Below the pieces are notes generated by a model that was not told where the DNA came from, made no database searches, and saw only the letters and a list, made by a program, of their open reading frames with translations. The position numbers and the translations under genes are program-made. 64,000 nucleotides of DNA from a virus. The stretch lies in IMG/VR virus record IMGVR_UViG_3300045988_175628; one strand, 5' to 3'. Positions 14,825 through 52,100 of this stretch are shown in pieces. How positions within the stretch are numbered: the stretch's first letter is position 1; each line of letters starts with the position of its first letter.

Positions 14825-15361
14825 TTAATTATCGCAAAGTTCAACAATTTTGAATCTTAGTGCTTCACTAAATCGAATTAGTTCCATACGATCTTTTATT
14901 CTTTTCCCATACCATTTACCAGCTCCAGGATTATGTAGTTTAATTGCTCTATCAATATCTCTAGTTGGATTATAATGGTCATTCATCATTTCAAACATAG
15001 TTAAAGCTTTATCAAGATCCCAAGCATCCTCTAACACAAAATTAGTGTTATATAAGTTATTAACTTCATCAACATAAATTTTAGTAATTTGGAATGGGCC
15101 TATTGCATTTTTACTAGATTTTACTTTTGGATTTCTCTCACATTCTACTTCAACAAGTGCCATGATAAAAACTTGCCATTCTGTAAGAGAATCACGAGTT
15201 TCTGTGATTGTAGTAATTGGATTAGTTAGAACTACGGGATTTGGTTTAATTGGGCTCCCAAATATTGCAAATATTCCAATAATAGTTACACAACCTATAA
15301 AAATTCGTTTATAAATCATATTTTTAAGTTTTATAGCAGAGGTGGCAGGACTCGAACCCAC
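14825..15361 (-). CDS. putative lysozyme-like/lytic transglycosylase-domain protein with N-terminal TM segment
   Basis: TM helix then '…EVECERNP…GPFQI' reminiscent of SLT E…GxxQI motif. Confidence 0.35.
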   Translation of the reverse strand: MGSSPATSAIKLKNMIYKRIFIGCVTIIGIFAIFGSPIKPNPVVLTNPITTITETRDSLTEWQVFIMALVEVECERNPKVKSSKNAIGPFQITKIYVDEVNNLYNTNFVLEDAWDLDKALTMFEMMNDHYNPTRDIDRAIKLHNPGAGKWYGKRIKDRMELIRFSEALRFKIVELCDN

Positions 15362-15420
15362 ACCTGGAGTTTTGGAGGCTCCCGTTTACGGTTTTGCTTA
15401 CCACTACAGTTTTCACTGCC
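15341..15420 (-). ncRNA. atypical tRNA-like element (T-arm GGGTTCGAGTCC, CCA-anticodon-like loop CTCCAAA, no canonical acceptor pairing)
   Basis: Strong T-arm and a Trp-like anticodon stem-loop, but I could not find a 5' acceptor strand complementary to the 3' end. Confidence 0.3.
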
Positions 15421-15479
15421 TTTCGTTTGTGGTCTAGAGTACGTCTTCACCATATCTTTCGACTTAGGTGCACGATTAT

Positions 15480-15890
15480 CTACTCGTTCGCGGCTAGAAT
15501 TCCTTCTATTCCGACGTCGTTACCATCAGCATTATCTGTTAAGGATTCAACGTTATCATCGTGTCCACTATTAGTGTTTCCACTAATAGGCTCCATTTGT
15601 TTAAAATTATTTTTGTAATCTTGACAACTGTTTACGCCAATAGAACTTCTATACTGAGAAGAGAAATGCACAGGTAAAATATATAAGTCTTTAGTATCTA
15701 AGTCAACTCCAATAAAATAATCTATATCTTTTTCAGTATACAGTTTTACTTTATATTCTCCCATATTATGAGATATTTTTCTCACTGGAATTATTCTTCT
15801 ACCATTACTTTCTATTTGTATAGTTTTAATCTGCAGTTTAATATATTTATTATCTTTTTCTGCAATTAAATCTACTTTTCCATTCTCCAA
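15480..15890 (-). CDS. small PD-(D/E)xK-like nuclease candidate
   Basis: 'VDLIAEKDNKYIKLQIKT' resembles D…(D/E)xK nuclease core; paralog of 30759..31157; sits immediately upstream of tRNA-like element 15341..15420. Confidence 0.3.
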   Translation of the reverse strand: MENGKVDLIAEKDNKYIKLQIKTIQIESNGRRIIPVRKISHNMGEYKVKLYTEKDIDYFIGVDLDTKDLYILPVHFSSQYRSSIGVNSCQDYKNNFKQMEPISGNTNSGHDDNVESLTDNADGNDVGIEGILAANE

Positions 15891-16044
15891 AACAGGTTTA
15901 AATAGATTATACCCGTTTTCAATAAATTTCTGTTCTACTAGCAGGCTACCTAAGTAACCTTTTTCAATTGTTTTTCAATCACTCATAATTTTATTCAGTT
16001 AAAGACCGCTGTGCTACCATTACACTACACCCCTATTCTTTCTA

Positions 16045-16497
16045 TTATTTCTTTCGACTCCTATGAATTAGATCTTCTTTACCTTTAATAGGTGCCTTTT
16101 CTACAAATAGTTCTCCAGAAGGCCCTAAAATAGTAGCATAAACATTAAATCCATTTATAGTAAGATATGTGTAAATTACATCTAGTTCAGAACCAATATA
16201 AGATTTTATAAGACGAGATAGTCCATAATCACCTTCTATAGAAAGTACTCGGGAACCTTTTGCATGCCAAAGACATTTTTCTTGTTCATTCCAAGTAGGA
16301 GGCATTGTAGAAACACAAGCCTTGCCTCCAGTTATATATAAATAAAGTTCTTCACTCATAGGAAGTTTAGTTATAGTATAATTGTCATAAGTATAAGGAG
16401 AACTACATATACCTTCAGTACTAATAGTAAAACTAGGTATACTAGATATGTCAGTTATATTTCGACATGAAATCATTAATTCTCCAGGGAGTCCCAT
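16045..16497 (-). CDS. hypothetical protein
   Basis: 150-aa ORF. Confidence 0.4.
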   Translation of the reverse strand: MGLPGELMISCRNITDISSIPSFTISTEGICSSPYTYDNYTITKLPMSEELYLYITGGKACVSTMPPTWNEQEKCLWHAKGSRVLSIEGDYGLSRLIKSYIGSELDVIYTYLTINGFNVYATILGPSGELFVEKAPIKGKEDLIHRSRKK

Positions 16498-16602
16498 ATC
16501 GCCTTTGGGACCTGGATCACCTCCTCAATTTGATCCTACTGGAAATGTTGTTGTTGAATTAGAATTTGTATTATTCATTTTTTAACATATTTAAAATATT
16601 TG

Positions 16603-16690: not shown

Positions 16691-16695
16691 CTCTT

Positions 16696-17476: not shown

Positions 17477-17482
17477 AAACCT

Positions 17483-20212: not shown

Positions 20213-21274
20213 TTATTTGTAATAAGCATTTCTTTCAGAAGGAGACATATATTCCCATTCTACATTCTTAAACTCTTGAAGAGTTCTACATCCAGTATAA
20301 GACATAGCAGATCTTAATGCGGAATCAAATTGAGAAAGTAAAGACTCAAGAGTATATTCAACAGGAACCCAAATCTCGATTCCTTCTTCAGCCTTTTTAG
20401 TATCAGAAATGTCCTTTTGACCACGTTCACTTGCCATTCCGTAGTATAGTCTTTCTTTGGGGTACAGTCCAATAACTCGTTCTCTGTCTGCTTTAGTTAG
20501 AGACATAAAATATCTAAGCGTCTCAGGATTATCATCTAGTCCTTTTGTCCGAGTTTGCCCGCAAGCCTCCTCACATTGTGCAAACATTTTGCCCATCATT
20601 ACATAATCTGCACCCAAAGCTAAACATTTTATAGCTCTATCTATTGTAGAAATTCCTCCATCTGCAATGATTTTTGGAGCTTTTTTAGGTTTAGGAGAAT
20701 CTTTAATCATGGATTTACAATTAGATAGATGTCGTAACAACCATTCCATTGAAGCATGTATCCCAGTTTTTACTCCAGTAGTACACACACTACCAGTTCC
20801 AATTCCTACTCGAACATAATCTACTCCTGCATCATAGCATTCCCAATAAAGATCTGGATGTGCGATATTTCCTACCATTATAATAATAGTTCCCCATCTC
20901 TCCTTAGCCTTTTTGACTAATTCATAGATTTTTTTCATATGTCCATTAGCTAAATCAATAAGTACTAAAGGACACTCATCCGCTACTTCTCCTTCACAAA
21001 AGAAAGTCTCAAATTCTTTTAAACTAAATGCACACCATACATGATTACATGCATTAAGTCTAAATTGTAAATTATCAACACGTCGGGGAATAATAGGAAG
21101 AACATCGGCATCTGTAAAAAGTTGATAATTTGATTCATCAATTACAGATGTCATAGGAGCAACAAAGATAGGATAGGTTCCTAAATCTCCTAAAGGATCA
21201 CATTCACTACGACTTACAATATCAGTAGCTTTTGAACTAGGTAAAATACCTATTTCATCTAAACTATACATCAT
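20213..21274 (-). CDS. guaC: GMP reductase / IMPDH-family protein (GuaC-like)
   Basis: 'GIGTGSVCTTGVKTG', 'IIADGGI', about 350 aa without CBS insert. Confidence 0.7.
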   Translation of the reverse strand: MMYSLDEIGILPSSKATDIVSRSECDPLGDLGTYPIFVAPMTSVIDESNYQLFTDADVLPIIPRRVDNLQFRLNACNHVWCAFSLKEFETFFCEGEVADECPLVLIDLANGHMKKIYELVKKAKERWGTIIIMVGNIAHPDLYWECYDAGVDYVRVGIGTGSVCTTGVKTGIHASMEWLLRHLSNCKSMIKDSPKPKKAPKIIADGGISTIDRAIKCLALGADYVMMGKMFAQCEEACGQTRTKGLDDNPETLRYFMSLTKADRERVIGLYPKERLYYGMASERGQKDISDTKKAEEGIEIWVPVEYTLESLLSQFDSALRSAMSYTGCRTLQEFKNVEWEYMSPSERNAYYK

Positions 21275-21476
21275 CTTCTATTTCTTTTAAAATCTCGCAA
21301 ATTCAATATTCAGGATCGTTAATCAAATAATGATTCCCAAATTCATTTCTTAAGCACATTTCTTCATTCACTTTTGTGTCAGATAATGTTCTTAATGAAT
21401 TATACCTAAATCCTTCTCCTTCAGGAGCTTCAATTGATTGTATTCTATATAAGACAGTTTTCATACCTTTATTTTA

Positions 21477-21548
21477 GAGGTTCTAGAAGGATTCGAACCC
21501 TCGTTCTCAGATTCGTATTCTGAAGTTTTTCCAATTAAACTATAGAAC
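21477..21548 (-). tRNA. tRNA-Arg (anticodon ACG)
   Basis: Acceptor GGTTCTA/TAGAACC, anticodon stem TCAGA/TCTGA loop ATACGAA, T-loop TTCGAAT. Confidence 0.75.
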
Positions 21549-21918
21549 CAAAAGGTGGAATATTCCACCTTAGAATTATTCTGCTACCTTTTCACAGCCT
21601 ACTTCTGGAATTTCTGTAAAATACTCATTGTAAATTTTCTGAGCAATTTCCAGACAAATTTCGGCACTACGAAGATCATCACGCAGCTTAAACATTTGAC
21701 TTACCCACTCATCTGCTTTAAAGTCTGTGCCTACTACCAGTGATTCAGTAGATTTAATTGACAGATCCTCAAGATTCATAATCTTTGATTTAATCTGCCG
21801 AATTTCCTTTTCAATGAGATTAACTTGATCCTTTGCTGCTTCACGAGCATCAGCATTAATAATCTCTGCACGTTTCTTGAGTACTGCAGTACCAGTAGCA
21901 CTCAGAATTTCATTAAAT

Positions 21919-22722
21919 TTATTTATAAACTTTTTTTACTATTATATTATTTGGAAGTTCTTCTTTATCCCAATCCTTATAAGAATTAGAGATTGTTATT
22001 GTTTTATAAAGTTGAGCAAGCTTTATCAAAGGCTCTTTCTGAATCGCATGTACAACACACAAAGATATATCTTTAGCTCCTTTATCTTGCAGTGCCTTAT
22101 GAATTGCAAAGAAAGTTCCTCCTCCATCACATAAGTCATCAACAACAGTGATAGATTTACTTGAATCTATTTCTGAAGTAATTGTTACCTCCAATTTATC
22201 CTTTGAAACTCTATGTTTTTCAGCACAATATATTGACTCGAACATAAAATAATCCTCATAACGTTTCTGTGCTCCTTTGTCAGGAAATAAAACTGCACCA
22301 TGAATATTATTTGGAAGTACTTTTGCAGATTCTGTCAGATTGGGTAAAATTATTCCATCAGAAATTAATTTGCTAGAATGTGGCTCTATTACTGATGTAA
22401 TTTGCGCTTGTACAAAGGTAAGACATTTTCCAACAAGTTCCAAATCCAAGGCTTCATTGAAAGAAAATAATCTATCAGTTCGAGCTGCAAACAAATATGC
22501 TATTTGTAAATGAGAAATCTGGATACCTTGACGATGACAAATATCTGCTATTTGCATCAAAATCCAAATATCATTTAAATTAGACAGTCGAGTATAAATT
22601 GTCAAGGTTTTCTTCCTATCTAATTCAGTTTCAAGTACAAGATGAGATTGAGAGTCAGGATAGGTATCAATTCGATATTTTACTTCCGACTTCTCTGGGT
22701 ATATAAAATCAATTACTTGCAT
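21919..22722 (-). CDS. ribose-phosphate pyrophosphokinase (PRPP synthetase)-family protein; candidate ADPR-PP synthetase (Adps-like)
   Basis: PRTase motif 'ITVVDDLCDGGGTF'; Prs-like N-terminus. Confidence 0.65.
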   Translation of the reverse strand: MQVIDFIYPEKSEVKYRIDTYPDSQSHLVLETELDRKKTLTIYTRLSNLNDIWILMQIADICHRQGIQISHLQIAYLFAARTDRLFSFNEALDLELVGKCLTFVQAQITSVIEPHSSKLISDGIILPNLTESAKVLPNNIHGAVLFPDKGAQKRYEDYFMFESIYCAEKHRVSKDKLEVTITSEIDSSKSITVVDDLCDGGGTFFAIHKALQDKGAKDISLCVVHAIQKEPLIKLAQLYKTITISNSYKDWDKEELPNNIIVKKVYK

Positions 22723-23801
22723 ATAGAGCTGAAATTATGCTTGTAAGTTTTAACTGAATAACTACAAAGAGTTGCTAATGTATGCCCTTCACATATATCA
22801 CAACAAGTTTCTATCGCTCTTGTTGGATACCAACCCTTAAATTTGGATTGAACATGATTTATTCCATATAAGACAAGTTCTTCATTAAATTCATAAGTCC
22901 AAAATTCTCCCTGAAACAAATTATTTCTATTCGTTTCATACGGATTTTGAATTTCTTTGAATACAGAGTCTCCTACTGGACCTTTACCATGTCTCGTTAA
23001 ATAGGATCTATAAACAAAATTAATAGTTATTTGATCTTTAGTTATAAAAGAAGGTAAAATATCAGGAGATGGACAACATGTAATTGGTGTTGTATATTTA
23101 TGAGATAGACCCACATCAGGATCTAAAAGAACACCTTGAGAACCCTCAAAGATTATTGAAGTATTTGAAGACCTAAATCCATATGGTTCACCAAGAAGTA
23201 CATTAGAATAAAAGGTTTTACAATAAGTATCAACAAGAGAATCCAAGTTATCAAACACATGACGAAACCTATGATAAGTTTCATCAAATTGTATTTTTTC
23301 TTCTGCCCATTCTCTGATTAATTTAAGCTTCATTTTTACAACTTGAGGAAAAGATAAATCTTTTATATATAATGACATTCCTTCTCGTTCTCTACAAATT
23401 GTCTCCCATATACCCTTCCCAACAGTACCTCCTAGATTCCTTTCAGAATTAAGCATTACATCAAATGGAGTAGTTATTTGTACATAAGGATCAAAATATT
23501 GAAGAGGAACATCGCACCCAAGTGTCCCTAATTGTCTATATTCTTGTAACCATTGTAAAGGATCCATAACACACTTAGACATCCAGTATGTAGGAGCATC
23601 TACAAATGTACCAGAGCCAAAACAAGAAAATATATGAGTTTTCCCTGATTCAGTAGTAACAGTATGACCCGCTTGTTGCCCTCCTGAGAATCTAACAACT
23701 ATAGGATTTAAATGATTTCTTTTGGCATCACAGCAGAGAGCATGGGTAACTTGACCTTTTCCTTCGTCACCAAATGTACAACCTACTACAATATTATGCA
23801 T
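22713..23801 (-). CDS. adenylosuccinate synthetase-family protein (short PurA homolog; PurZ-like length)
   Basis: 'GDEGKGQ' P-loop, 'GGQQAGHTV', 'TVGKGIW'; only 362 aa versus about 430 for canonical PurA. Confidence 0.7.
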   Translation of the reverse strand: MHNIVVGCTFGDEGKGQVTHALCCDAKRNHLNPIVVRFSGGQQAGHTVTTESGKTHIFSCFGSGTFVDAPTYWMSKCVMDPLQWLQEYRQLGTLGCDVPLQYFDPYVQITTPFDVMLNSERNLGGTVGKGIWETICREREGMSLYIKDLSFPQVVKMKLKLIREWAEEKIQFDETYHRFRHVFDNLDSLVDTYCKTFYSNVLLGEPYGFRSSNTSIIFEGSQGVLLDPDVGLSHKYTTPITCCPSPDILPSFITKDQITINFVYRSYLTRHGKGPVGDSVFKEIQNPYETNRNNLFQGEFWTYEFNEELVLYGINHVQSKFKGWYPTRAIETCCDICEGHTLATLCSYSVKTYKHNFSSICK

Positions 23802-24685
23802 TACCGTTTCCCTAAAGTAAATAAATTAGATTTTGTTGGAATAGTTTCTTCAGAAACTTTTGTAGATATTTCCTCTGTTGCAAAACCTTTCAAAGTTTTA
23901 CCCATAGCATCACAAATAGATTCTACAACTTCTTCAGGTTTACATACAATAAGATTATCTCGAAGAAATTCTTTCATTTGCTTTTTTACTACCTCATCAT
24001 AATATCCACCACCGTGGTGAACATGAATATGAAATACATGATATTTCTCGCAAGCTAATTCGTAAGCTTCTTGCCAAGTATAATCACGTTCATATTTTAC
24101 ACCAGTCAAATTAGTTAAAGTTTCCTTACTAATCCTAGACAAAGTAGGTTCATCTCCAACAGTAAAAAGAAATCCTTTTTGGTTTCTCTTTTCATAACTA
24201 TCAATAGAAGTATGATTTCCAGCAATAATCCAAGGCAATAAATAAGATTCTCCATTATTACCACCTCCACGTCCTTCTAAGTAAATTCTAGAAAGACATT
24301 GATTAATCGCGATAGTTGAGGATTCGAATTGCCCTACTTGACATGGGCAAGAATCACATTCATGATCTCCCACTCCCATAAAAAGAATCTGAGGATGTTT
24401 AATCCCAATAGAATCAATAATGGAATCCATTAATTTAGGGAGATAATCTCGAATCATTTTATCAGGAACTGATCCCATTGAACCAGTTTCATCTAAAGCA
24501 ATAAAAACTGGAAAAGATTCAGGATGTTCCTCAGAATCTCTTGATTCTCTGATATGTGTTTTACTTTTCGTTAAATCCATTTCTTCATGCAGAGATCGCT
24601 GATGAAAAATTTCTTCTCTGGATTTTGTAGAGTAAGCAGCAGTTGTTGCTCTATATGTATTTGTACTCCATGATCCACTTCCCAT
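23801..24685 (-). CDS. von Willebrand factor A (vWA) domain protein
   Basis: MIDAS 'DETGSMGS'. Confidence 0.55.
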   Translation of the reverse strand: MGSGSWSTNTYRATTAAYSTKSREEIFHQRSLHEEMDLTKSKTHIRESRDSEEHPESFPVFIALDETGSMGSVPDKMIRDYLPKLMDSIIDSIGIKHPQILFMGVGDHECDSCPCQVGQFESSTIAINQCLSRIYLEGRGGGNNGESYLLPWIIAGNHTSIDSYEKRNQKGFLFTVGDEPTLSRISKETLTNLTGVKYERDYTWQEAYELACEKYHVFHIHVHHGGGYYDEVVKKQMKEFLRDNLIVCKPEEVVESICDAMGKTLKGFATEEISTKVSEETIPTKSNLFTLGKR

Positions 24686-24689
24686 ATTA

Positions 24690-25481
24690 TTAAAATATTT
24701 TAATTACATGATCTTTATGATAAGCATTTTCATGTAATTTTAAGATTTGTGATTCAATTTCAGTAAATGGACTCTTAAGATGTCCTGTACGATCTAATCG
24801 CTCCATTTTTTCAATGAGAACATCAAGCTCTTGATAAGTAAATCCAAAATTTTCTTCATCAGATCTGCCTGTTAATCCGTCTGCAGGAACTTTATGAACT
24901 AAATTATAAGGCAACTCCATGAAGTCTCCTAGTTTTACAACTTCTGTACAAGTCAAACGTGCAATTGGATTAATATCACAAGCCATATCTCCCCATTTTG
25001 TACACCATCCAATAAATGCTTCGGATTTGTTACCTGTTCCAGCTACTCTGTAACCCAAAGACTGAGCAATCGCATATAGAATTGTCATGCGAATGCGAGG
25101 TGCAATATTAGTTAAAGCTTTATCAGAAATTATAATTGAGGAACCATCTGAAACAAGATTAGGAATTCCTACATCTATGGATTTTTCTAAAGTGGTTCTT
25201 TCGATAGAACTCAACAGTGAGGTAAAAGGATGTGAAATATTTATTAGTATATGTCTGATATCTAAATATTTGCATACTTCTAAACTATCACTGATATCCT
25301 TTTGCTCTCCATTAGGCATTAAAACACCTAATACATTTTCTTTTCCTATAGCATCCACTAGAAGCTTAGCTACTATAGTAGAATCCTTCCCTCCACTAAT
25401 GCCCAGGACATAACCACGAGCATTAGTGTGAGTTTGGTAATTCTTAAGGAAGGATATTATTTTTTTGTATTCTTTTTCCAT
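24690..25481 (-). CDS. nadE: NH3-dependent NAD+ synthetase
   Basis: PP-loop 'GISGGKDST', length and C-terminal region match NadE. Confidence 0.8.
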   Translation of the reverse strand: MEKEYKKIISFLKNYQTHTNARGYVLGISGGKDSTIVAKLLVDAIGKENVLGVLMPNGEQKDISDSLEVCKYLDIRHILINISHPFTSLLSSIERTTLEKSIDVGIPNLVSDGSSIIISDKALTNIAPRIRMTILYAIAQSLGYRVAGTGNKSEAFIGWCTKWGDMACDINPIARLTCTEVVKLGDFMELPYNLVHKVPADGLTGRSDEENFGFTYQELDVLIEKMERLDRTGHLKSPFTEIESQILKLHENAYHKDHVIKIF

Positions 25482-26965
25482 TAAAATCTTCCGTTCCAGA
25501 GAATTTTACGAATCTCAGTAAGAGAGGTTTCTTCAATCATTTTTCCATCAACAAAAATAGGACGAAGAAGATTAAAGGGTTCCTCATGGGCCTCTTTCAG
25601 AGTCATGCCCTCATCACAGTCAAATTCGTTTGTTACATGATTATAGAAAACAGCACAACACCCTTTGTGTGACTTTTTCATCCCTGAATCTGTTTTAGGA
25701 TCTTTGTAAACCATAATAGGTTTAATTACCCCATCAATAGTTTGTTCAACATAACTACATTTAATTGCAACATTAAATGTATCACGAGAAAACATATCAA
25801 CTCGTCCTGATTCATCCATATAAGAAAGCATAGAAAATCCTCCTGCTCCCAAAGCTACATTTTCCACAGAAAATCCTTGCTCATCAAGAATTTGATAAAT
25901 TTGCTTTGTTCGTAATTGAGTAATACCGTCTCCATATAGAGCTCTAACATGAGAGTCAAGAACTTTATATCCTTTAGAATTAATTGTGCCTCCAAATGTA
26001 TCCCAAAGGCTAAAAACAGTCTCAGTTACAATTTCTACAGGATCTCCTGAATCCCCTCTAACATATAAAGTTCCATTTCTACTTAAAATTTCTTGTTTAA
26101 GACTTGGAAGAATAGTATCAACAACATTCCAATAATCATAAGAATCACTTACCATAGAAAAGGATCCATTAGGATATACTTCGGTAAGAAGACGACGAAT
26201 CATGCTAATTTCATTTCCGTCAATAGCAGCAGAGCTACACATCACAGAATGCTCTGTTGATGCCATTCCTCCTCCTACTATAGACATAGGAGTATTGTAA
26301 TATTTAGAGGCATACATGATGCCAGGAATAGTAGCAGTCTTATTGAAAGAAAGTAAAAATCCACAAGACGCCTTTATTGCTCCATGAAGTCCTACTAAAC
26401 TTCTAAATCCGAATTCAGAAATAGCAGAACGACCAGAAATATCAGAAGTTTTAGTATAGTAATCATTTACTATATTGCGATATTTAGTCACAGCAGTTGC
26501 TACACACATTGGGTACCAAAGTTCAGAAAGCATTAAAGTTTCAATAAAATTAGTACACCATGCAAATTCAGGCAAAGTATTAGAAATTTCAATACATGGT
26601 ACATTCATTCCTATTTTATATCCTTCAGGTAATGCCCAAATTTCAACAGGAAGATACCCAAGTTGATGAAGCTTTTTTATTTTATCCGAATTAACCCTAT
26701 TAGCTCCCATAGTAGAAGATATTACAAATTCGTATTCTGCAATAACTTCATCTAAAGAGCGATTAAAGAAGGTTTCGTTCATATATTCAATCAGATATTC
26801 CTTAATAAATGCTTGAATGCCAAAAACTACAACCTTATTAAATTCAGGGATTCTAGTTTTACGAGGAACATAATATGAAACTACTTTAGTAATGCTGGGA
26901 TCATATTGTTCTGCATGACACTGTTTATAAAAATCCGTAAGCAGAATTCCGCAAGGTTTAAACAT
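25481..26965 (-). CDS. nicotinamide phosphoribosyltransferase-family protein (NAMPT/NadV or Namat-like)
   Basis: 494-aa NAPRTase/NAMPT-fold protein next to Prs-like and NadE genes. Confidence 0.75.
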   Translation of the reverse strand: MFKPCGILLTDFYKQCHAEQYDPSITKVVSYYVPRKTRIPEFNKVVVFGIQAFIKEYLIEYMNETFFNRSLDEVIAEYEFVISSTMGANRVNSDKIKKLHQLGYLPVEIWALPEGYKIGMNVPCIEISNTLPEFAWCTNFIETLMLSELWYPMCVATAVTKYRNIVNDYYTKTSDISGRSAISEFGFRSLVGLHGAIKASCGFLLSFNKTATIPGIMYASKYYNTPMSIVGGGMASTEHSVMCSSAAIDGNEISMIRRLLTEVYPNGSFSMVSDSYDYWNVVDTILPSLKQEILSRNGTLYVRGDSGDPVEIVTETVFSLWDTFGGTINSKGYKVLDSHVRALYGDGITQLRTKQIYQILDEQGFSVENVALGAGGFSMLSYMDESGRVDMFSRDTFNVAIKCSYVEQTIDGVIKPIMVYKDPKTDSGMKKSHKGCCAVFYNHVTNEFDCDEGMTLKEAHEEPFNLLRPIFVDGKMIEETSLTEIRKILWNGRF

Positions 26966-26966
26966 A

Positions 26967-28012: not shown

Positions 28013-29740
28013 TTACATCTTAATGAAAGATAGAATCTCTTGATTCATAGCTTCATCAAACAGATCACGTGTAGTTTGTACTTTTCCATTTAAGAATGAC
28101 ACAATCTGTGCAGAATACCCAGACATATAATAAACATTCTTAACATCCCCATATGTTTGGAAAGGTGTTCGGTCGAGCTGATAATAATGATTTCTTAGAT
28201 TCCAGAGACAAACAACAAAATTGTTAATATACTCCTCGGAAAATCCTCCTCTCCTTAGTGTAGAATGAACCCTCTCTACGGAGGTCTTATTTAAGCATGA
28301 AGGATTAAACTCACAATCACTAATACATAGAATTCCTTTAGGAAATTCCTCTTCTGGAATACCCTGCGATTTTAGTCTAACGAAGAGATCAATAACGCTC
28401 TCAAAGTTAGTACTGCCGTAATATCCAGAATGGTCATTATACCACTTCTCTAAAGGTGTATTTCCTCTCCATTCATGAAGCTGGGCGTTTGAATTAAACT
28501 CAATCCACGCATTTTGGAATCTTCCTTTCAAGAAATATGAGAAGTATAAAGCTATTGCTTTACTTATATTATAACAAGACATAGATACTCCCGTTGCATC
28601 GGAACTCATAGAACCAGAAGTATCACGAACTACAATTAAATCTGTAGTATTTCCCTCATTTTGACACTTGTTAACAAGTGTCATAAATTGTTTATTAATA
28701 GTGTCTTGAATATGCTTCTCTATGTTATGCAAAGCTTTATTACAGATAGGTTGAAAAAGTTCATGTACAAATCCTGTATATTTTACTTCTTTTACCTCGG
28801 GACTACCAACCCACTCTTGATACTTTTCTTTAAGATTATGATTCTCTAAAAATTTTGAATGAACCAAAATATTTAAAGCACGACCATGAATCTTATCAAA
28901 GTCAATTTCTGCATATTTTTGCTTTGAAATAAGTTGTTGCCAACTGTGTGCAGTTCCAGATGCTTTCATTCTGGCATAACAACGATACACCTGATACTTC
29001 TCAGCTTCTGATCTTTCTTTTGATGTTCCATAAAGTTTGGAACACAACCACTTAGCAATTATACAATTTGCTTCTGCCTCTATTGTAGTACATTTTGAAC
29101 GAGCTTTAATTTGAGGGAGATACTTACGAACTAAATTAGTCTGAGAATCTGAGTTAAGTCCAGATAGAATTAAATCTCCAAAACGTTCCCAATCTAAAAC
29201 TCGATTTTCCCAACCATTATAAATTAAATCGTAGCGTAGCATGACAAATAAGTCCTTCCAAGAACCTACTAAGGGAATTAGCCAAGCATTTTTCCAGAAC
29301 ACTTCCTTATCTTTAGTATGTAGCCAGATAAGTCGCATAATTCCTTCATGACGTAATTCAGAACCTTTTTGTGCTTCCTTAGTGCCATGATCTTTATCAT
29401 TAATCTTACGACAAATCATTCGCAAGAAAAAGATAAATTTAACAGCATCTTCCTTATTTATAGCCCATAAAATCTCACAATCTTTAGCGATTTCTGAGAA
29501 GGGACGAATTTCTTTGTACTTAGAAGTACTTCCAAACTGATCAACAAATGGATCCCCAGTTGAATTATAAGCTTTTGCACCATTTCCTGTAAGAATCTCT
29601 GCTGAGATTTTTAATCCTGCTTGAACAAAAGTAGATTTAGATGTTGATTTACTGTCATTAGCAGTAAATAGGGTTTTCTTTTTTGCTTCGAACATCTTAT
29701 TAAAGTTTTTAAAAATAAAGCGGATATTGAACAATGTCAA
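28013..29740 (-). CDS. large vWA-domain protein (DUF2828-like architecture)
   Basis: C-terminal MIDAS 'VVRDTSGSMSS'; 575 aa. Confidence 0.5.
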   Translation of the reverse strand: MTLFNIRFIFKNFNKMFEAKKKTLFTANDSKSTSKSTFVQAGLKISAEILTGNGAKAYNSTGDPFVDQFGSTSKYKEIRPFSEIAKDCEILWAINKEDAVKFIFFLRMICRKINDKDHGTKEAQKGSELRHEGIMRLIWLHTKDKEVFWKNAWLIPLVGSWKDLFVMLRYDLIYNGWENRVLDWERFGDLILSGLNSDSQTNLVRKYLPQIKARSKCTTIEAEANCIIAKWLCSKLYGTSKERSEAEKYQVYRCYARMKASGTAHSWQQLISKQKYAEIDFDKIHGRALNILVHSKFLENHNLKEKYQEWVGSPEVKEVKYTGFVHELFQPICNKALHNIEKHIQDTINKQFMTLVNKCQNEGNTTDLIVVRDTSGSMSSDATGVSMSCYNISKAIALYFSYFLKGRFQNAWIEFNSNAQLHEWRGNTPLEKWYNDHSGYYGSTNFESVIDLFVRLKSQGIPEEEFPKGILCISDCEFNPSCLNKTSVERVHSTLRRGGFSEEYINNFVVCLWNLRNHYYQLDRTPFQTYGDVKNVYYMSGYSAQIVSFLNGKVQTTRDLFDEAMNQEILSFIKM

Positions 29741-30366: not shown

Positions 30367-30661
30367 GTAATCCCGAATCCTTAATTGCAGGTTCCTCCCG
30401 TACTATTGCAACTTACTAATAAATGTATTACATCCCTGCCATATAGATCAAGCCTTATAGAACCCTCGATATTTCAATCTATGATAAGACTTTTTCAAAT
30501 TTTCAGTTTCATACTCCCTGTGGTATAATCTCTGAACTTAGTATAGTTAATTACAGAGTTTCTTGTCCACGCTATAATAGCTTGTTATAGTTTAACTTCC
30601 ACTCGCAACTCCTTAGAGGATGCATACCATCAATGCCACCTTCAACCTTATTTTAATTAGT

Positions 30662-30757
30662 CCCGCCGTAAGGATTCGAACCTCACTACCCCAAAGTCCA
30701 TTACACCAATTTGTTAACGGGGATTTGATTTACAGTCAAACGGTGTTACGTCGGGAT
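30662..30757 (-). ncRNA. atypical tRNA-like element (T-arm TGAGG-TTCGAAT-CCTTA plus 3' acceptor CGGCGGG; anticodon-like TTTGA-CTGTAAA-TCAAA; no regular cloverleaf)
   Basis: Possible acceptor CCCGACG/CGGCGGG with one mismatch but about 94 nt and no foldable D-arm; could be an intron-containing or degenerate tRNA. Confidence 0.3.
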
Positions 30758-30758
30758 T

Positions 30759-31157
30759 TTATAACTCTACTTTATATTTATCATATTTACCACATAAGGA
30801 AATTGATGTTCTAATTCCTTCAAGTTCTTTAACTGGAATTGAATAAAATTCTTTGAAAGAAGTTACAACAAATAGAAAATCACTAGAGTTATTATTGAAA
30901 GTCTTAGCTCAATAATTCTTTCGATTTCCTCCACAAGTTCTCAATCCTACTTGGAAATTTCCAGTCCTTTTATCTACCTGCGTGGTAGTTTTAACTTGAA
31001 TCTTCAATATATTTTCCCCATTATCTACGAGTAAATCGTAGTCCTGAGAATCTGTCATAGGAATAGATACTATTCACCCTAATTTTGAATAAAATGCGAT
31101 AGCATATGCCATCCCAACATTTCCTTGCAGTTTAGAATTTTTTAAATGTGAAAACAT
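30759..31157 (-). CDS. small PD-(D/E)xK-like nuclease candidate (contains 2 TGA)
   Basis: Hand translation MFSHLKNSKLQGNVGMAYAIAFYSKLGW…QDYDLLVDNGENILKIQVKTTT…; paralog of 15480..15890; abuts tRNA-like element 30662..30757. Confidence 0.35.
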
Positions 31158-31217
31158 AAAATAAAGTTAAATTCTAGTGGGCGTATTTCAGCCCACTAGA
31201 AAAATCAAAGAAGTTAA

Positions 31218-33273: not shown

Positions 33274-33363
33274 ATTTTAAATAATCAATTTCAAAAAAAG
33301 AAAGGCTACTTCATCATCCAAAATTATTATATAATAAAATCATTGCTGTATGTAGCCTATTAG

Positions 33364-34736: not shown

Positions 34737-34808
34737 AGAGGTATAAGAGATTCAAACTCTCCCCTTGTGATTGGAAGTCACATATGCTATCACTAACACC
34801 AATACCTC
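34737..34808 (-). tRNA. tRNA-Gly (anticodon TCC)
   Basis: Acceptor GAGGTAT/ATACCTC, anticodon stem TGTGA/TCACA loop CTTCCAA, T-loop TTTGAAT. Confidence 0.75.
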
Positions 34809-35033
34809 ATAAAAGGTCTCCATAAAGCTCCGTAGATTAAAAGTCTATTGCTAAATAAATTTGCTGTAAGAGACCTTATAAACACAACTGTGAAATTTTC
34901 GCTTTGAATCATTTCTGATCTCTGGACTAATACTGATAGATTAGAGTGCCTTCATATCAGAGCCTGCAATGTCCATACCCCACTCTGGGCTTTACATTTC
35001 ACTACAAATCTTAATTGTGTTATTAATATTAAG

Positions 35034-35106: not shown

Positions 35107-35175
35107 AAAGGGCTAGGTTACTTTCATTACATCCTACCATTAGACGACCTATAATACTTTTCAGCCCGAAATTTC

Positions 35176-35250
35176 TTATAGACTGGGATTCGAACCCAGA
35201 TCGCTGTTAAAACAAGACAGTCTAAGTTTAAAGCTTGCTGAAGTAACCTT
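35176..35250 (-). ncRNA. tRNA-like element (T-arm CTGGG-TTCGAAT-CCCAG; GTT-containing anticodon-like loop; acceptor strands not complementary)
   Basis: Canonical T-arm plus stem-loop CTGTC-TTGTTTT-AACAG but no 5' strand pairing with TCTATAA. Confidence 0.3.
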
Positions 35251-35347
35251 GTGTTTACAAAGATACGTATTTTATTTTAATTAATCAAACACTTTATCTA
35301 TTTTCTTACCTATTTCACCTAAATGTTTTACGTTCTTTATATCCATA

Positions 35348-35420: not shown

Positions 35421-35432
35421 CTCCTAAAACTA

Positions 35433-35510
35433 GGTAACAATAAGGACTTGAACCTTTTCGCTAAATTAAAAGAGAAATTTTGCTTAAACCATTTACTTTG
35501 CTGTATGTTA
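35433..35510 (-). ncRNA. tRNA-like gene with 8-nt anticodon-type loop (AAATT-TCTCTTTT-AATTT)
   Basis: Acceptor GTAACAT/TTGTTAC (6 bp), T-arm AAAGG-TTCAAGT-CCTTA; anticodon loop cannot be drawn as 7 nt. Confidence 0.35.
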
Positions 35511-35540
35511 CCTATTCATTGTAAAACTGTAAAGAATTTG

Positions 35541-35648: not shown

Positions 35649-35780
35649 TTACTTCCCCTTCATTGATGAATTACAGTATTCTTAAATATTGTACGATAAT
35701 GTGCATCTAACTCACTTTAACTTATTGTATTCATACGAGTTAACCATTTCTCCAATTCGCCATATAGTGATTTAATTAGC

Positions 35781-35810
35781 GGCGAATGGGGGACTCGAAC
35801 CCCCAGTCTT
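35781..35810 (-). ncRNA. tRNA 3'-half-like fragment (T-arm GGGGG-TTCGAGT-CCCCC plus ATTCGCC)
   Basis: Perfect T-arm followed by 7-nt acceptor-like strand; its complement lies on the wrong side (35755-35761), forming a local hairpin rather than a tRNA acceptor. Confidence 0.3.
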
Positions 35811-35982
35811 ATGATTTTTTTTTATTAGTGAATTAGCACATCCTTATTAACTTGAGACTAAAGCTTTTGACGCAACACTAAATCTTATGTAGCTCCTTGT
35901 AATTTATCTAGGATATTACAGCTCTTTGCTACTTAGTCTAAGTCTGAAGCTAAGTCTATCGTCAAATATTTTGTTTGTTTTA

Positions 35983-37431: not shown

Positions 37432-37440
37432 ATAAAAAGT

Positions 37441-37516
37441 CTCTATTATATTAACTATCGCTCTACCAACTGAGCTACCAATAGAACCCAGTCTATTGGA
37501 CGGGACTCGAACCCGC
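37441..37516 (-). ncRNA. split/permuted tRNA-like locus: 3' half and 5' half of one tRNA in reversed order
   Basis: On the minus strand the 3' half (T-arm GCGGG-TTCGAGT-CCCGT + acceptor-3' CCAATAG) lies 8 nt upstream of the 5' half (acceptor-5' CTATTGG + perfect D-arm TAGCTCAGTTGGTAGAGC); the two 7-mers are exact complements. Confidence 0.35.
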
Positions 37517-37726
37517 GACCTGCAGTTCCCCATTAAAATTATTTGCTGAAGAGACTTTATAAAAATAATAGCTTTTTAACACATGTTGGAGGTAGCTATT
37601 TAGATAGGGCTTTTCAGTCTACTCAGTCATTTCCTACTGTAGCTTTGTCTCTATCACCTGCCTGTCATCACGACGCATTCGTGCACAAGCTGTTATTGTC
37701 CTAGTTGCGTATTCAAATAACTGCTG

Positions 37727-40762: not shown

Positions 40763-40863
40763 ATTTATAGTAGATGACATTTATTATTCAAGCCAAACAG
40801 AATATTAAAATAATTTGCTGTATGTCACCTTATAAAGCCTTTAATCATCAATCAGATAGATTG

Positions 40864-40950
40864 TACCGAGAACGGGAGTCGAACCCGCACGGCCATTACT
40901 GACCAGTGGATTTTCATCTGAATTTGATCAGATCGGACTATGTCTTCTCC
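40864..40950 (-). ncRNA. tRNA-like element (T-arm GCGGG-TTCGACT-CCCGT + TCTCGGT) with upstream TCA-containing hairpin ATCTGA-TCAAAT-TCAGAT
   Basis: No complementary 5' acceptor; 27-nt gap between the TCA hairpin and the T-arm is too long for a regular tRNA. Confidence 0.25.
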
Positions 40951-41059
40951 ATGCTTTTCAGTTTAGGAGGTGAGTATATAGTCTCTACACATTTAGAAAT
41001 ATTTCTATTTCACTTAGCTCGGCGTTATTATGGGCGGTTAACTCCATACCTTCACCGAA

Positions 41060-41605
41060 TTAGCCCACATTCACATCAGAAGTTTCCTTCTGAGTGCTCA
41101 ATCCTTCATCAATAGTACTATTGATAGATTTAGTAGATTTTCGTATTTTTTGTCTTTTACAGTAAGAATCTGTTTGTGAATGACAATTAGGACAAAGAAT
41201 TTGTAAATTTTCTAGTCTATCATCTAATGGATTTCCATTGATATGGTGGAGTTGTAGAGTAATAGGATTTCCTAATCACTCTGAAATACCACATATTTCA
41301 CATTTGTATTGTTTAAGTTTATGATTTAACACAAATTCCTTTGTTTTGGCACTTGGTTTTTTCCTTTCTCTTAAAACTAATACTTTAGTTACATCAATAT
41401 TATTACCAAAATTTGGATGACCATATTGGTTTCATCTTTGTCCAGTAAAATGTGATGTATCTATTTTAAATTCTTTACATCTATTTTGGAGATTAGAATA
41501 ATTTCCTCCCGTCTCCTTTAAATTAAAATACAGTATTAACTGTCTTCAAGAAGTGCAATTCTTAACTACACTTTCTAACATTTCCTTTGTATATTTTTTA
41601 TTCAT
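41060..41605 (-). CDS. HNH homing endonuclease (in-frame TGA)
   Basis: Hand translation '…KQYKCEICGISEWLGNPITLQLHHINGNPLDDRLENLQILCPNCH…'; W from TGA; not in ORF list. Confidence 0.6.
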
Positions 41606-42285
41606 ATCACAAAGATAAATATTATTTTTGAAAACAGCAAATACAAAGACAAAAATTACTTATGTCTACCTATAAAGTCCACTGCGGCTGCCATTTCGCC
41701 ATCTCGGTATCTTGTTTTGACTAGCTTTCTCGAATTATCTTCGACTCTTCACAAGACTGTAGCACTTTTTGCGTTTTCCTGCCTTTGTTAGATTGGTGTA
41801 TTTTACCATTAAATCTACAACGATGGACTATTTTTCTTCTAGTTGAAGTAGTATAGTTACTAACCTAATACTAAGTGTTAGGATTTTTGGATTTATATTG
41901 TAAATCCTAAATGGTCTAAAAAATAAATAAAATATACAACCATACTTAGTGCTATGAGCTTCCTCTAAGTTACTTACGCGTTTTCGCTTAGAAAATTCTA
42001 AACTAAGTGATCCTACTCTTTGGTAGATTAATTATGGCTGCCACTTAGTGACAGAATTTAACTCTCGTTTTACGTATATTTTTATTTAGTAAAATAAAAG
42101 ATTTCAATGAATATATATCTCCCAAAGATAATTCATCGTGAATTCATACATAATCAATTCTCATCAAGTTAATCACCAGTGATCTTGGGAAATCACTATC
42201 TGTTGACCATAGATTATTTCGAACTATCACTTCACTGTTTTCTTAATAATAGAATTTTATAAAATATTAAGTTATCAGCTGTATT

Positions 42286-47600: not shown

Positions 47601-47601
47601 A

Positions 47602-49894: not shown

Positions 49895-50879
49895 TTACAG
49901 GAACTTTGAGGATTTCTTGGAATTGAACATATTCCCCTACTTTAGGTGCAGAGATAGCCTTACGACTATCAGAGAACTTATTGAAGAGGCTATCAATTCC
50001 TGATTTATTATACCGCTCCAGTAATTCCTCTGCTCTCATGTTGGCAACTCCATTCTTTGCATCCAGATCAGCCAACATACCCGTAGTAGAATCAATGACA
50101 TGTTCCATTTCTCCAATTTTATCAGAGATATCTTTTGCCATGAAATCCATAGCATCAGTAAACATTGCCAATTCGTCAGGATCCCCCTTGACAATAGACA
50201 TTACGGATTTGAAAGCTTTATGCTGTGCACGGATACGTTCAAATGTTTTCTTACGAATATTTACTTCGTTAGTTACATCCTGAATCGTAAGATTAGCATA
50301 CTCTTCAAGCTTCTTTAACTTTTCAAACCACATTTCTGAGTTTTTAAGAGCAAGCAGCTGATCATCTAACGATTCTTTAAGACGAAGTGCCTGTCGTTTC
50401 TGAATAGTTGCCATTGCAACATTTCCATTACGTTCAGACACTTGTGCTTCATCCATACAGTTTCGCATTTCTTTAGTATCGTTCTGAATATCATTTTTAG
50501 AACGAATAATGCATCCTCTGAGATCCCCCATTACTTTCTTAATGTCAGCAGACTTTTTTTGCATATCACGGATACGCTGTTCCACGATAGCAATAGGATC
50601 AATTTCAATAACTAATCCTGTTAGCTTTCTCATTAACATGAAGTAAGTGGCAGAACAAATTTTTCGGAATTTGGGATCACACAGAAGATAAATAATTCCT
50701 GCAATTAATCCCAAAAGCAAACCAAGATACAGTGTATTGGATGCTAAGGTAATCAGGAAAGGCAATGCTTTATAAAAAAGCATTAACCCTCCTGCACCTA
50801 ACAAACCCAAAACTACCATACCAGTTTTACCTCCTGGTTTTTCCCAGTTAGAAAGACTAGAACCTTCAGGTAGCATCAT
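49848..50879 (-). CDS. membrane-anchored coiled-coil protein
   Basis: 343 aa, 2 TM then long coiled coil. Confidence 0.4.
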   Translation of the reverse strand: MMLPEGSSLSNWEKPGGKTGMVVLGLLGAGGLMLFYKALPFLITLASNTLYLGLLLGLIAGIIYLLCDPKFRKICSATYFMLMRKLTGLVIEIDPIAIVEQRIRDMQKKSADIKKVMGDLRGCIIRSKNDIQNDTKEMRNCMDEAQVSERNGNVAMATIQKRQALRLKESLDDQLLALKNSEMWFEKLKKLEEYANLTIQDVTNEVNIRKKTFERIRAQHKAFKSVMSIVKGDPDELAMFTDAMDFMAKDISDKIGEMEHVIDSTTGMLADLDAKNGVANMRAEELLERYNKSGIDSLFNKFSDSRKAISAPKVGEYVQFQEILKVPVNGNETPKSLDDFWGE

Positions 50880-50881
50880 GT

Positions 50882-51562
50882 TTACAGAATTTGTGCCAGT
50901 CGAGTTTTATCCTCATTCAGGCGATTCGTAACTTTGTCGATAGTTGCGTTCGTTCGAGCTTCGAAAGCTGTTGTTTCGGCTGTGTTCTTCTGAATCTCAG
51001 AATTGAGATCGATTGACTTGTCCGTGAGAGTTTTCAACTCTTCACGAAGTTGTTCAATACGAAGGTTCGTAGCTTTCAGTTCCTCAACCTTATCTTCGAC
51101 AGTTTCTTTACGAAGTTTCTCCATGCGAAGCTTTGCTTTCCCTCGTTCAGCTTCAATTACACCTAAATAGGTGTCAATTGATGCCAAGACAACCTCCTTT
51201 GTCATTCGAGGATCCATACCTTGAATAGAGCCAAAGGCTGCCTTAAGACGAGTAGTCTCGTCGGGAATGTATTGCCGCATCTGCTCTGCTGACTGAAGAA
51301 GCTCCAGATAATCAGGACCAGGAAGATTTGCTTCATTGATTTTACGTTCCAGAAGCTCAACCAGTTTAGTATCCACATCTCCTGCTGCCACAATCGGAGG
51401 CGTAGGAGTGGGAACTACTACTGAAATCTCCTGTTTGACAGGTTCAACAGTCGGCTTAGGCTCTTTATTGGAGTCTTCTACGAACATCCAACCAAAAAGA
51501 CGATTTTTTGCCATTGTTTTATTTATTTTGATAGTTTTCAAGTCTAGGAATAGATTCCTCAA
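50882..51562 (-). CDS. coiled-coil protein
   Basis: 226 aa, heptad-rich. Confidence 0.4.
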   Translation of the reverse strand: MRNLFLDLKTIKINKTMAKNRLFGWMFVEDSNKEPKPTVEPVKQEISVVVPTPTPPIVAAGDVDTKLVELLERKINEANLPGPDYLELLQSAEQMRQYIPDETTRLKAAFGSIQGMDPRMTKEVVLASIDTYLGVIEAERGKAKLRMEKLRKETVEDKVEELKATNLRIEQLREELKTLTDKSIDLNSEIQKNTAETTAFEARTNATIDKVTNRLNEDKTRLAQIL

Positions 51563-51920
51563 GAATGAAATTGATAACTTCAGTTTTTTCAGGATCCAAA
51601 ACTGCGGAATATGTATAAGTAGAATCCCGAGTAACTGCTATTACCATATATTCAGAACATCCGTCAGGCAAGTATTGAATTAAAGAAATACTTGTGATCT
51701 TTACTGGAGTACAATAAGTTTTAGTGAAATTAGAAATTATGTCACGAACATTTTCCTTACGATCATTACTATGTTCTACAGTCAGTAATAGCATTACTAT
51801 CCCTAGAAGTACTCCAGGTAATAGTATTAATAGGGAAACAGCGCTCTCAGAATACTTTATAGCCATACCACAGAGCACTATAATACCTAACCCTATGAGA
51901 ATGACTAATATTGTTGACAT
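51519..51920 (-). CDS. membrane protein
   Basis: 2 TM. Confidence 0.35.
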   Translation of the reverse strand: MSTILVILIGLGIIVLCGMAIKYSESAVSLLILLPGVLLGIVMLLLTVEHSNDRKENVRDIISNFTKTYCTPVKITSISLIQYLPDGCSEYMVIAVTRDSTYTYSAVLDPEKTEVINFILEESIPRLENYQNK

Positions 51921-52049
51921 GGTGTTGGAAAATTTGATTCAGATTCTCGAGCTTCAATACATGAATCATCCACGAATTCATCAGGATCTGTACATCCTGT
52001 ATCAGGTACATTAACTTCTTCCATTATATAAATTTTAAAAGTAAATTTT

Positions 52050-52100
52050 GGGGAGCTGAGGGATTCGAACCCTCTAATTATCATAAGCTCCTGCAGGTTT
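52050..52100 (-). ncRNA. tRNA top-half-like minihelix (GGAGCT…GAGGG-TTCGAAT-CCCTC-AGCTCC)
   Basis: T-arm flanked by a complementary 6-bp acceptor-like stem only 17 nt upstream; no D or anticodon arm. Confidence 0.3.

Follow-up and report, generated by a model that had tools for sequence, protein, structure and literature searches.

We analysed a stretch of viral DNA of 64,000 nucleotides (IMG/VR virus record IMGVR_UViG_3300045988_175628, hereafter the window), in which a first-pass annotation had noticed seven loci carrying a tRNA-type T-arm and a 3' acceptor strand with no 5' strand to pair with it. We found that the missing strand exists at all seven loci, in three arrangements. It lies 600-760 nt upstream, across an intron, at two of them (15341 and 40864, each locus being named by its first coordinate); 8-21 nt downstream, in permuted order, at three (35176, 35781 and 37493); and in normal order at the remaining two (30662 and 52050). 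Instead of the single family of elements first proposed, the loci very probably represent four different kinds with only the T-arm in common: tRNA genes split by group I introns, permuted tRNA-like RNAs of the Y-RNA type, what is probably a non-canonical tRNA-Tyr, and an acceptor/T-arm minihelix. All four kinds have precedents. New, as far as we could find, are a probable group I intron that conceals a phage opal-suppressor tRNA; a widespread family of Ro60-fold proteins, known only as domains of unknown function (DUF), with its own Y-RNA family absent from Rfam; and a conserved tRNA-Tyr without a normal D-arm.

The window is low in GC (30-42%), and its minus strand holds nearly all genes and every tRNA. 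Related IMG/VR contigs, numbered below with the prefix L, reach 179 kb, so that the window derives from a large phage. At default settings ARAGORN called 20 tRNAs in it and Rfam 22, and none of these calls overlapped any of the seven loci, all of which were found where they had been placed. Since the plus strand shows the reverse complement of the T-arm and 3' acceptor strand, we assigned the loci to the minus strand, like the called tRNAs; read on that strand, each consists of a 5-bp stem with a TTCGANT loop followed by a 7-nt acceptor-like strand. The T-loop core RNTCGAAYC occurs 32 times in the window against 4.8 expected, a number that none of 100 shuffles attained. Every T-arm was scanned by script for the position of a 7-mer complementary to the strand that follows it. 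The lack of a 5' strand at tRNA distance held for 15341, 35176, 35781, 37493 and 40864, and only partly for 30662 and 52050. A comparison of homologous loci in relatives, which had been suggested as a check, revealed both intronless alleles and covariation. Matches of the region to GenBank phages by BLAST included no near one, and the distant ones were to ordinary tRNA-Pro genes only. The energies of single-sequence folds are mostly unremarkable (z from -0.8 to -2.9), a point against the overall interpretation, and we did not use them as evidence.

At locus 15341-15420, the 3' acceptor CACCTCT has just one tRNA-like 7/7 complement in a range of 3.5 kb, AGGGGTG at 16034. It opens a 5' exon (16002..16034, minus strand, as are all features marked (-) below) that continues with a D-arm, the 5' strand of the anticodon stem, GCGGT, and CTT, and that is also present in relatives L107-L118. 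The second exon (15337..15396 (-)) reads CAAA, ACCGT, variable arm, T-arm, CACCTCT and G73. Between them lies a probable group I intron of 605 nt (15397..16001 (-)), which interrupts the anticodon between U34 and C35 and encloses an open reading frame (ORF; 15480-15986) for a PD-(D/E)XK homing endonuclease with one in-frame TGA, matching PDDEXK_5 in Pfam (E=1e-14). When the exons are joined (16034-16002 plus 15396-15337), the product is a tRNA of 93 nt with a long variable arm and G73, in which the loop CTTCAAA presents the anticodon UCA; ARAGORN calls it as a cloverleaf at its default threshold. The CCA loop at 15372-15385 that had been taken for an anticodon-like hairpin is real sequence and belongs to the variable arm of this tRNA. 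That arm is itself a complete copy of a CCA anticodon arm, GGAG(C/T)-CTCCAAA-ACTCC, so that the spliced tRNA(UCA) has two tandem anticodon arms.

The position of the intron is fixed at 34/35 by alleles with and without it, which differ by exactly the intron. At the orthologous site in 18 related contigs, nine alleles are intronless and read GGTCTT-CAAAACC (L105, for example); one (L113) is the same allele cut exactly at the hyphen by a homologous 600-nt intron that starts with TAACTG and ends with AGTAAG; and the other eight are window-type alleles with the intron, so that the split state is found in nine of the 18. As is required of a group I intron, U precedes the 5' splice site and G is the last intron base, the junctions of the two introns reading ...CTT|T... 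and ...G|C/A.... P7-P8-P7' of this intron is similar to that of the intron at 40864, and P7 covaries among relatives (GAGTA/TACTC versus GAGCA/TGCTC). Two other parses were rejected. Relaxed ARAGORN reads the locus as tRNA-Trp(cca), and a splice joining positions 26/27 would give a perfect class I tRNA-Trp(CCA); in the latter the 5' exon would end in A, not U, and the allele polymorphism puts the intron at 34/35. Two unrelated tRNA(UCA) alleles occupy the orthologous site (window position 16034) in different relatives among L105-L122, one with a tRNA-Trp-like body and the other (GCGCCTG...) with the unusual T-loop ATCGTTA. Both carry the same type of intron, which suggests that the endonuclease target is their shared anticodon-arm sequence, GGTCTTCAAAACC.

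The second split gene, at locus 40864-40950, encodes tRNA-Leu(UAA). Its first exon (41675..41708 (-)) starts at 41708 with ACCGAGA, the unique tRNA-like 7/7 complement of the 3' acceptor TCTCGGT, and goes on with the D-arm, the anticodon stem 5' strand GTGGA, and CTT. The second exon is 40864..40914 (-), and the rest of the locus is stem P9 of a probable 760-nt group I intron (40915..41674 (-)) that lies between U34 and A35. This stem accounts for the TCA-containing loop at 40912-40930, again a real sequence that had been assigned wrongly, and the 3' splice site follows directly. An HNH endonuclease ORF with a Pfam match and three in-frame TGA codons (41060-41605) lies within the intron. Joining 41708-41675 to 40914-40864 restores an intact gene for a canonical 85-nt tRNA-Leu(UAA), called by ARAGORN at its default threshold and 94% identical to the intronless tRNA-Leu(taa) of close relatives L002 and L006; as in the other intron, U precedes the 5' splice site and G is the last base. 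The Rfam model Intron_gpI (RF00028), a check that had been recommended for both intervals, is covered over its full length at 40916-41123 in a local search (30.8 bits, E=8e-6), and inspection of the alignment by eye shows GUAGAGACUAUA and AAGACAUAGUCC as the core elements R and S. GCCGAGC at 41024, tried as the 5' acceptor of this locus, was rejected as it belongs to the intron stem P4/P6, and so was the relaxed ARAGORN parse as Asn(att).

Two points weigh against the group I assignment: the score at 40864 falls short of the Rfam gathering score of 50, and the intron at 15341 is not detected by the Rfam model, the evidence for its core consisting of the P7/P8 similarity and the P7 covariation. 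Both introns also escaped the intron mode of ARAGORN, which returned spurious introns only, because they sit at 34/35 and are 600-760 nt long. Self-splicing of the two introns would yield a tRNA-Leu(UAA) and a tRNA that has a UCA anticodon with a Trp-like acceptor (A1-U72, G73) and reads UGA. A Leu-UAA tRNA and a UGA/Trp decoder are otherwise absent among the tRNA calls of the window, and the two split genes supply them; the idea that some loci were intron-containing or otherwise non-canonical phage tRNAs was right for 15341 and 40864, and probably for 30662. In several distant phages of this group (L071, L021, L083, L084, L089 and L010) a T-arm/acceptor 3' exon follows an intron of the kind seen at 40864, with insertions of differing length in the same intron loop, so that intron-split tRNA genes seem common in the lineage.

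Group I introns are known in the tRNA-Leu(UAA) genes of cyanobacteria and plastids, and the intron of tRNA-fMet carries the PD-(D/E)XK endonuclease I-Ssp6803I, to whose family, we presume, PDDEXK_5 corresponds. The tRNA-Leu intron of the window resembles its cyanobacterial and plastid counterparts in its 34/35 position and in a core that aligns, below the gathering score, with the Rfam group I consensus. It differs from them in residing in a large phage genome, together with a second intron in an opal-decoding tRNA(UCA), and in that the endonuclease genes hold in-frame TGA, so that their translation should depend on the suppressor that one of them interrupts. The literature searched contained no report of a phage tRNA gene with a group I intron.

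Locus 30662-30757 corresponds to a variant tRNA-Tyr(GUA) at 30661..30755 (-), without a canonical D-arm and with a 38-nt variable region. Its acceptor, CCCGACG/CGGCGGG, is paired at six of seven positions with a conserved A5.G68 mismatch, and with this 5' strand at normal distance the claim that none exists is only partly correct here. Only 8 nt separate the acceptor and anticodon stems, the anticodon loop is CTGTAAA, and the T-arm is normal. The variant departs from the canonical tRNA form and was found only by relaxed ARAGORN and with the wrong anticodon, as Cys(aca), a parse that we rejected. It occurs in 12 contigs, in two sequence groups, and across these the acceptor, the anticodon stem and a CCCC/GGGG stem show compensatory changes; the variant is therefore under selection. 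The variable region contains GGTGTA(A/G)TGG, which resembles a canonical D-loop and its 3' strand. The D-arm sequence appears to have been displaced into the variable region, from where its GGTG might form a pseudoknot with a CACC located where the D-stem normally is. tRNAs without a D-arm are known, for example metazoan mitochondrial tRNA-Ser, which the variant recalls in having just 8 nt between acceptor and anticodon stems; unlike that tRNA, it keeps a canonical T-arm and has the 38-nt variable region. Directly upstream lies a free-standing gene for a PD-(D/E)XK homing endonuclease (30759..31157 (-); PDDEXK_5, E=2e-19) with two in-frame TGA codons. This gene accompanies the variant in aligned close relatives and is absent from L029 and L021, which have a canonical tRNA-Tyr(GUA) with the same acceptor at the same site. 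Its link to the endonuclease gene suggests that the variant may be a cleavage-resistant allele carried along with it.

The locus at 52050-52100 had been described as a T-arm/acceptor minihelix and nothing else. At 52052..52091 (-) it reads GGAGCT, 11 nt, GAGGG-TTCGAAT-CCCTC and AGCTCC; the acceptor partner thus lies only 11 nt upstream of the T-arm, and the fold in which the 6-bp acceptor stacks on the T-arm makes up 59% of the ensemble. It does not have the form of a canonical elongator tRNA. In relatives the acceptor covaries, with GAGAGCT/AGCTCTC in place of GGAGCT/AGCTCC, and they also bear an additional segment that resembles a D-arm, as well as a hairpin whose loop has 6 nt. The window copy is, given this fuller element, a truncated tRNA-derived element in which the acceptor and T-arm are conserved. 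Such a minihelix may act as a processing signal for RNase P or the CCA enzyme at the end of a small gene.

Exactly three T-arms in the window have a perfect 7-bp acceptor partner 8-21 nt downstream. They define elements C, D and E (loci 35176-35250, 35781-35810 and 37493-37516), in all of which a D-arm with a GG dinucleotide comes next after the closed acceptor and the flanks pair as a terminal stem of 9-14 bp. Element C (35108..35256 (-)) has the terminal stem AAGGTTACT/AGTAACCT, UCAGCAA, the T-arm, a 7-bp acceptor with a 21-nt loop, and the D-arm, and its 3' end abuts tRNA-Asn. Element D (35695..35850 (-); fold z=-2.9) has a long bulged terminal stem, a GGGGG/CCCCC T-arm, the acceptor ATTCGCC/GGCGAAT with a 19-nt loop and a D-arm of the GAGAAATGGTTAACTC type, without CAGCAA. 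Element E (37432..37568 (-)) has the stem AAAGTCTCT/AGAGACTTT, UCAGCAAA, the T-arm, the acceptor CCAATAG/CTATTGG with an 8-nt loop and a canonical D-arm; its 3' end abuts tRNA-Pro.

These structures are maintained by covariation. C and E retain only 70-85% identity in close relatives in which the product of the flanking protein gene is 92-100% identical, and yet every helix remains paired. In the E family from these relatives, 99% of alignment cells are paired, all 7 acceptor pairs change on both sides, and 10 pairs in total do so, which none of 500 shuffles matched. A covariance model built from this family, R1, scores 32.4 bits on C and 24.3 bits on D. In an alignment of 76 sequences, 95.1% of cells are paired (57.5% when shuffled, 33-45% when slid), with 598 double-change cells against 163, and all 25 pairs change on both sides. 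The family consensus consists of the terminal stem, an invariant CAGCAA, GGUC, the T-arm, the closed acceptor, UAGCUCAGUUGGUAGAGC, an A-rich tract, the 3' strand of the stem and UGAUAAG. At least four shorter modules share part of this plan. Three have the stem and the motif without the tRNA-like core: 33303..33358 (-), with ACAGCAA, just downstream of tRNA-Phe; 34806..34890 (-), with ACAGCAAA, which abuts the 5' end of tRNA-Gly and is matched by R1 (35.6 bits, E=1e-5); and 40773..40829 (-), with ACAGCAAA, upstream of tRNA-Ile. The fourth, 35428..35510 (-), has the stem AGGTAACA/TGTTACCT, ACAGCAAA and a T-arm only, and abuts tRNA-Lys.

The order of parts in C, D and E is that of the bacterial YrlA RNAs. 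Ro60 proteins with tRNA-like Y RNAs have been documented in bacteria and some phages, including Thermus phage phiLo, in which Ro60 occurs with Yrl1/2 (PMC12135203); their published traits are proximity on the same strand, a conserved motif beside the stem, the 7-bp acceptor form of Mycobacterium smegmatis YrlA being cleaved by RNase P, and recruitment of host PNPase (Chen et al. 2014, PMC4201824; PMC12135203; PMC7824862). Like YrlA (RF02553), the window RNAs have a T-arm, a closed acceptor-like stem and a D-arm in permuted order, 5' and 3' ends joined in a long stem, and a conserved motif beside the 5' strand; there is more than one RNA per genome, including a shorter T-arm-only form resembling YrlB; and the acceptor has 7 bp, as in M. 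smegmatis. The Rfam YrlA model aligns element E at 37460-37520 over model positions 27-81, placing T-arm, acceptor hairpin and D-arm in the same order. Unlike YrlA, the family has at least seven copies or derivatives interspersed in the tRNA array of the window, and its acceptor loops are long (8-21 nt).

A candidate protein partner, of 560 aa, is encoded at 28013..29695 (-). It has a helical-repeat ring and a C-terminal vWA domain with a MIDAS motif, which together make the Ro60 fold, and its sequence matches DUF7788 (45 bits), DUF2828 below threshold, and a PHROG named 'RNA-binding protein'. The family numbers 1,879 homologues at E up to 1e-5, and the literature that we found on DUF2828 concerned unrelated plant, tardigrade and similar subjects only. 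Through the family alignment we fetched 80 loci from other phages, with 42-84% protein identity. Among the 64 distant loci encoding the Ro60-like protein, R1 gave 44 matches at E values of up to about 1e-4. They are spread over 38 loci and lie without exception on the strand of the Ro60-like gene, and in 33 of the 64 a match lies from -0.5 to +2.5 kb of the gene; this same-strand adjacency in relatives recalls YrlA/Ro60 systems, and in the window too the RNAs and the gene share a strand. The gene stands between two gene groups, 20213-27548 (-) and 29755-32777 (-). One is a nucleotide/NAD cluster which, by eye, includes GMP reductase/IMPDH-like, PRPP synthetase-like, adenylosuccinate synthetase-like, NAD synthetase-like and nicotinamide phosphoribosyltransferase-like genes, with an isochorismatase-family protein confirmed by Pfam; the other consists of a NADAR-domain protein and an SPFH/Band-7 protein.

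In our interpretation C, D and E belong to a new and divergent family of Y RNAs with a divergent Ro60-like partner, whose binding and function we infer. Several observations count against this reading. YrlA scores 35.8 bits on the core of E, about half the gathering score of 69, the part with the Ro-binding stem being unmatched, and it reached the gathering score in none of eight related loci with strong homologues. The Ro60-contact motif, GNCGAA(N0-1)G or CGAA, is absent from these RNAs, in which CAGCAA follows the 5' strand of the terminal stem instead. The protein, which falls to DUF7788/DUF2828, has no match to Pfam TROVE and no sequence match to Ro60 in the PDB. The window RNAs lie 5.4-7.9 kb from its gene, whereas YrlA is encoded no more than about 4 kb from a Ro60 orthologue, and the 76-sequence alignment was fitted to the model, which somewhat inflates the covariation. 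On the reading that we prefer, the terminal stem and CAGCAA would dock the phage Ro60-like protein, and the domain of T-arm, closed acceptor and D-arm would bring in a partner that binds tRNAs, for example a tRNA-processing enzyme or an exoribonuclease of the host. C, E and three of the four shorter modules abut or closely precede a tRNA, so that each is probably co-transcribed with that tRNA and freed from its 5' end by RNase P; the 7-bp acceptor stems may themselves be RNase P substrates, as in M. smegmatis YrlA. The earlier suggestion of tRNA mimics was, for these three permuted loci, correct in spirit. A DUF7788/DUF2828 family with a covarying Y-RNA-like mimic would widen the range of Ro60/Y-RNA systems in large phages, and CAGCAA beside the stem is a new RNA motif and a candidate for protein binding.

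It might be argued that the permuted elements and the stem-CAGCAA modules serve only to process or stabilise the tRNA transcripts, as leader hairpins or RNase P/E/III punctuation, and have no relation to the Ro60-like protein. The 5-8 kb between elements and gene would fit such a role, as would the several modules that have the stem and CAGCAA without a tRNA-like core. So would the position of C, E and three of the four shorter modules, each of which abuts or closely precedes a tRNA. Against it, covariation has kept a full tRNA-like core, and in 33 of 64 distant loci the RNA and the Ro60-like gene share a strand and are no more than about 2.5 kb apart, which is the published signature of YrlA and Ro60 (PMC4201824). 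We consider this explanation unlikely.

The abundance of homing endonuclease genes in the region, the endonuclease gene adjoining a tRNA-Tyr without a normal D-arm at 30662, and the truncation of 52050 relative to the fuller element in relatives are what one would expect if recombination, integration or damage by homing endonucleases had reduced the loci to pseudogenes or dead 3' fragments of tRNAs; fragments from recombination or integration were a possibility raised by the first-pass annotation. This reading finds no support, because every locus has a covarying partner strand, the helices being maintained by compensatory changes in relatives; moreover, the split genes yield canonical tRNAs for isoacceptors that are otherwise missing. 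We therefore hold it quite improbable that the loci are debris.

The order of 3' half, linker and 5' half with a perfect 7-bp acceptor also fits pre-tRNA genes that are circularly permuted, like those of the red alga Cyanidioschyzon, or the pieces of a two-piece transfer-messenger RNA (tmRNA), and C, D and E could in principle mature to adaptors. We find this very improbable. The elements have no 7-nt anticodon loop, the equivalent of the anticodon stem opening to an asymmetric A-rich internal loop and a long terminal stem with the invariant CAGCAA, and they offer no space for a tag frame. At 137-156 nt they contain no reading frame; they lack the tag frame and the pseudoknots between acceptor halves of a two-piece tmRNA; in the window ARAGORN found no tmRNA and Rfam tmRNA scores were at most 13.6 bits. 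The Rfam permuted-tmRNA model does match one homologue, that of L087 (58.6 bits), but as a composite of the Y-like RNA with a genuine tmRNA directly downstream. To our knowledge there is no bacterial pathway that circularises pre-tRNAs. A tmRNA gene lies immediately downstream of or near a Y-like RNA at L087:4768-5283 and at L073:12806-13208.

The first-pass annotation had also supposed that, in a TGA-recoded genome, one of the loci might be the missing suppressor, and the UCA anticodon of the spliced 15341 tRNA supports this, TGA being a sense codon in several genes of the window. Most of 77 long minus-strand frames bounded by TAA or TAG contain no TGA at all, and a handful have one TGA a few codons before the end, where a standard-code stop would be. 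In-frame TGA is found in both intron endonucleases, two free-standing endonucleases, a LicD-family protein and others, and its use as sense extends to proteins confirmed by Pfam as LicD (E=7e-41 with TGA read through), HNH and PDDEXK_5. These results support recoding of the window, in which TGA hardly ever acts as a stop and serves several genes as a sense codon. The frames at 39121-39999 (-), 6289-7119 (-) and 33967-34701 (-) are all shortened by standard-code ORF calling.

At aligned positions of related endonuclease genes TGA swaps with TGG, and codons for hydrophobic or aromatic residues also occur there; this favours insertion of Trp at UGA, without being decisive. The A1-U72 pair and G73 of the spliced tRNA resemble those of E. 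coli tRNA-Trp. Close relatives have a separate tRNA-Trp(CCA) just upstream of element E, where the window has none; about 150 nt of unassigned non-coding sequence (37569-37725 (-)) lie between tRNA-Ser and element E at the place of the relatives' tRNA-Trp(CCA). Against Trp-inserting recoding stand the facts that a few genes appear to stop at TGA and that the spliced tRNA(UCA) is class II in shape with an anticodon arm closest to that of tRNA-Ser(UGA). That the spliced product is instead a selenocysteine tRNA (tRNA-Sec), the label given by ARAGORN and one that the UCA anticodon, long variable arm and G73 would suit, is hardly credible, since the acceptor and T stems are 7/5 and not 8/5, the D-stem has 4 bp with a 7-nt loop where bacterial tRNA-Sec has 6 bp and a 4-nt loop, endonucleases and LicD have their in-frame TGAs at sites of hydrophobic or aromatic residues, where TGA and TGG alternate among homologues, and no selenocysteine machinery turned up in the window, where no search aimed at such genes was made.

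Returning to the opal suppressor, we offer tentatively, as an unlikely extension, that it is two-headed, with the UCA arm decoding and the CCA arm of a tRNA-Trp sitting in the variable-arm position. The retained CCA arm would then keep recognition by tryptophanyl-tRNA synthetase, or a single RNA might read both UGG and UGA, and a self-splicing intron, with an endonuclease that itself requires UGA read-through, would gate the production of this RNA. If this were so, it would constitute a self-reinforcing switch from the standard to the recoded code during infection.

In TGA-recoded gut phages, for example the 'Agate' clade, TGA is read as Trp, intron endonucleases preferentially use TGA, and a suppressor has been detected in only 35% of genomes, non-canonical tRNAs being suspected (Borges et al. 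preprint, 10.1101/2021.08.26.457843). To judge by its sequence features, the window is like these phages: it is low in GC, derives from a large phage, has TGA depleted as a stop and used as sense in a subset of genes, and encodes its own suppressor tRNA. It differs in that its suppressor gene is split by an intron, which interrupts the anticodon and so hides the opal-decoding tRNA from ARAGORN and Rfam. Intron-aware tRNA searches could thus recover missing suppressors of TGA-recoded phages, and split suppressors so recovered would link code switching to intron splicing and homing endonuclease expression. The window also encodes a tRNA with anticodon CUA, an amber suppressor, at 35540-35620 (-), which ARAGORN labels 'Pyl' and Rfam scores at 39.4 bits as a tRNA; it is conserved in close relatives, and reading TAG as sense adds little ORF length in the window.

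Two further tRNAs that default ARAGORN missed reach the Rfam gathering score, at 34737-34808 (-) and 54135-54208 (-); relaxed ARAGORN reads the former as Gly-UCC and the latter as Glu-CUC. Finally, a self-cleaving ribozyme of the Pistol class, complete in length, lies at 55379-55449 (-), directly 3' of ORF 55455-55796; Rfam RF02679 scores it at 72.8 bits, the threshold being 34.5.

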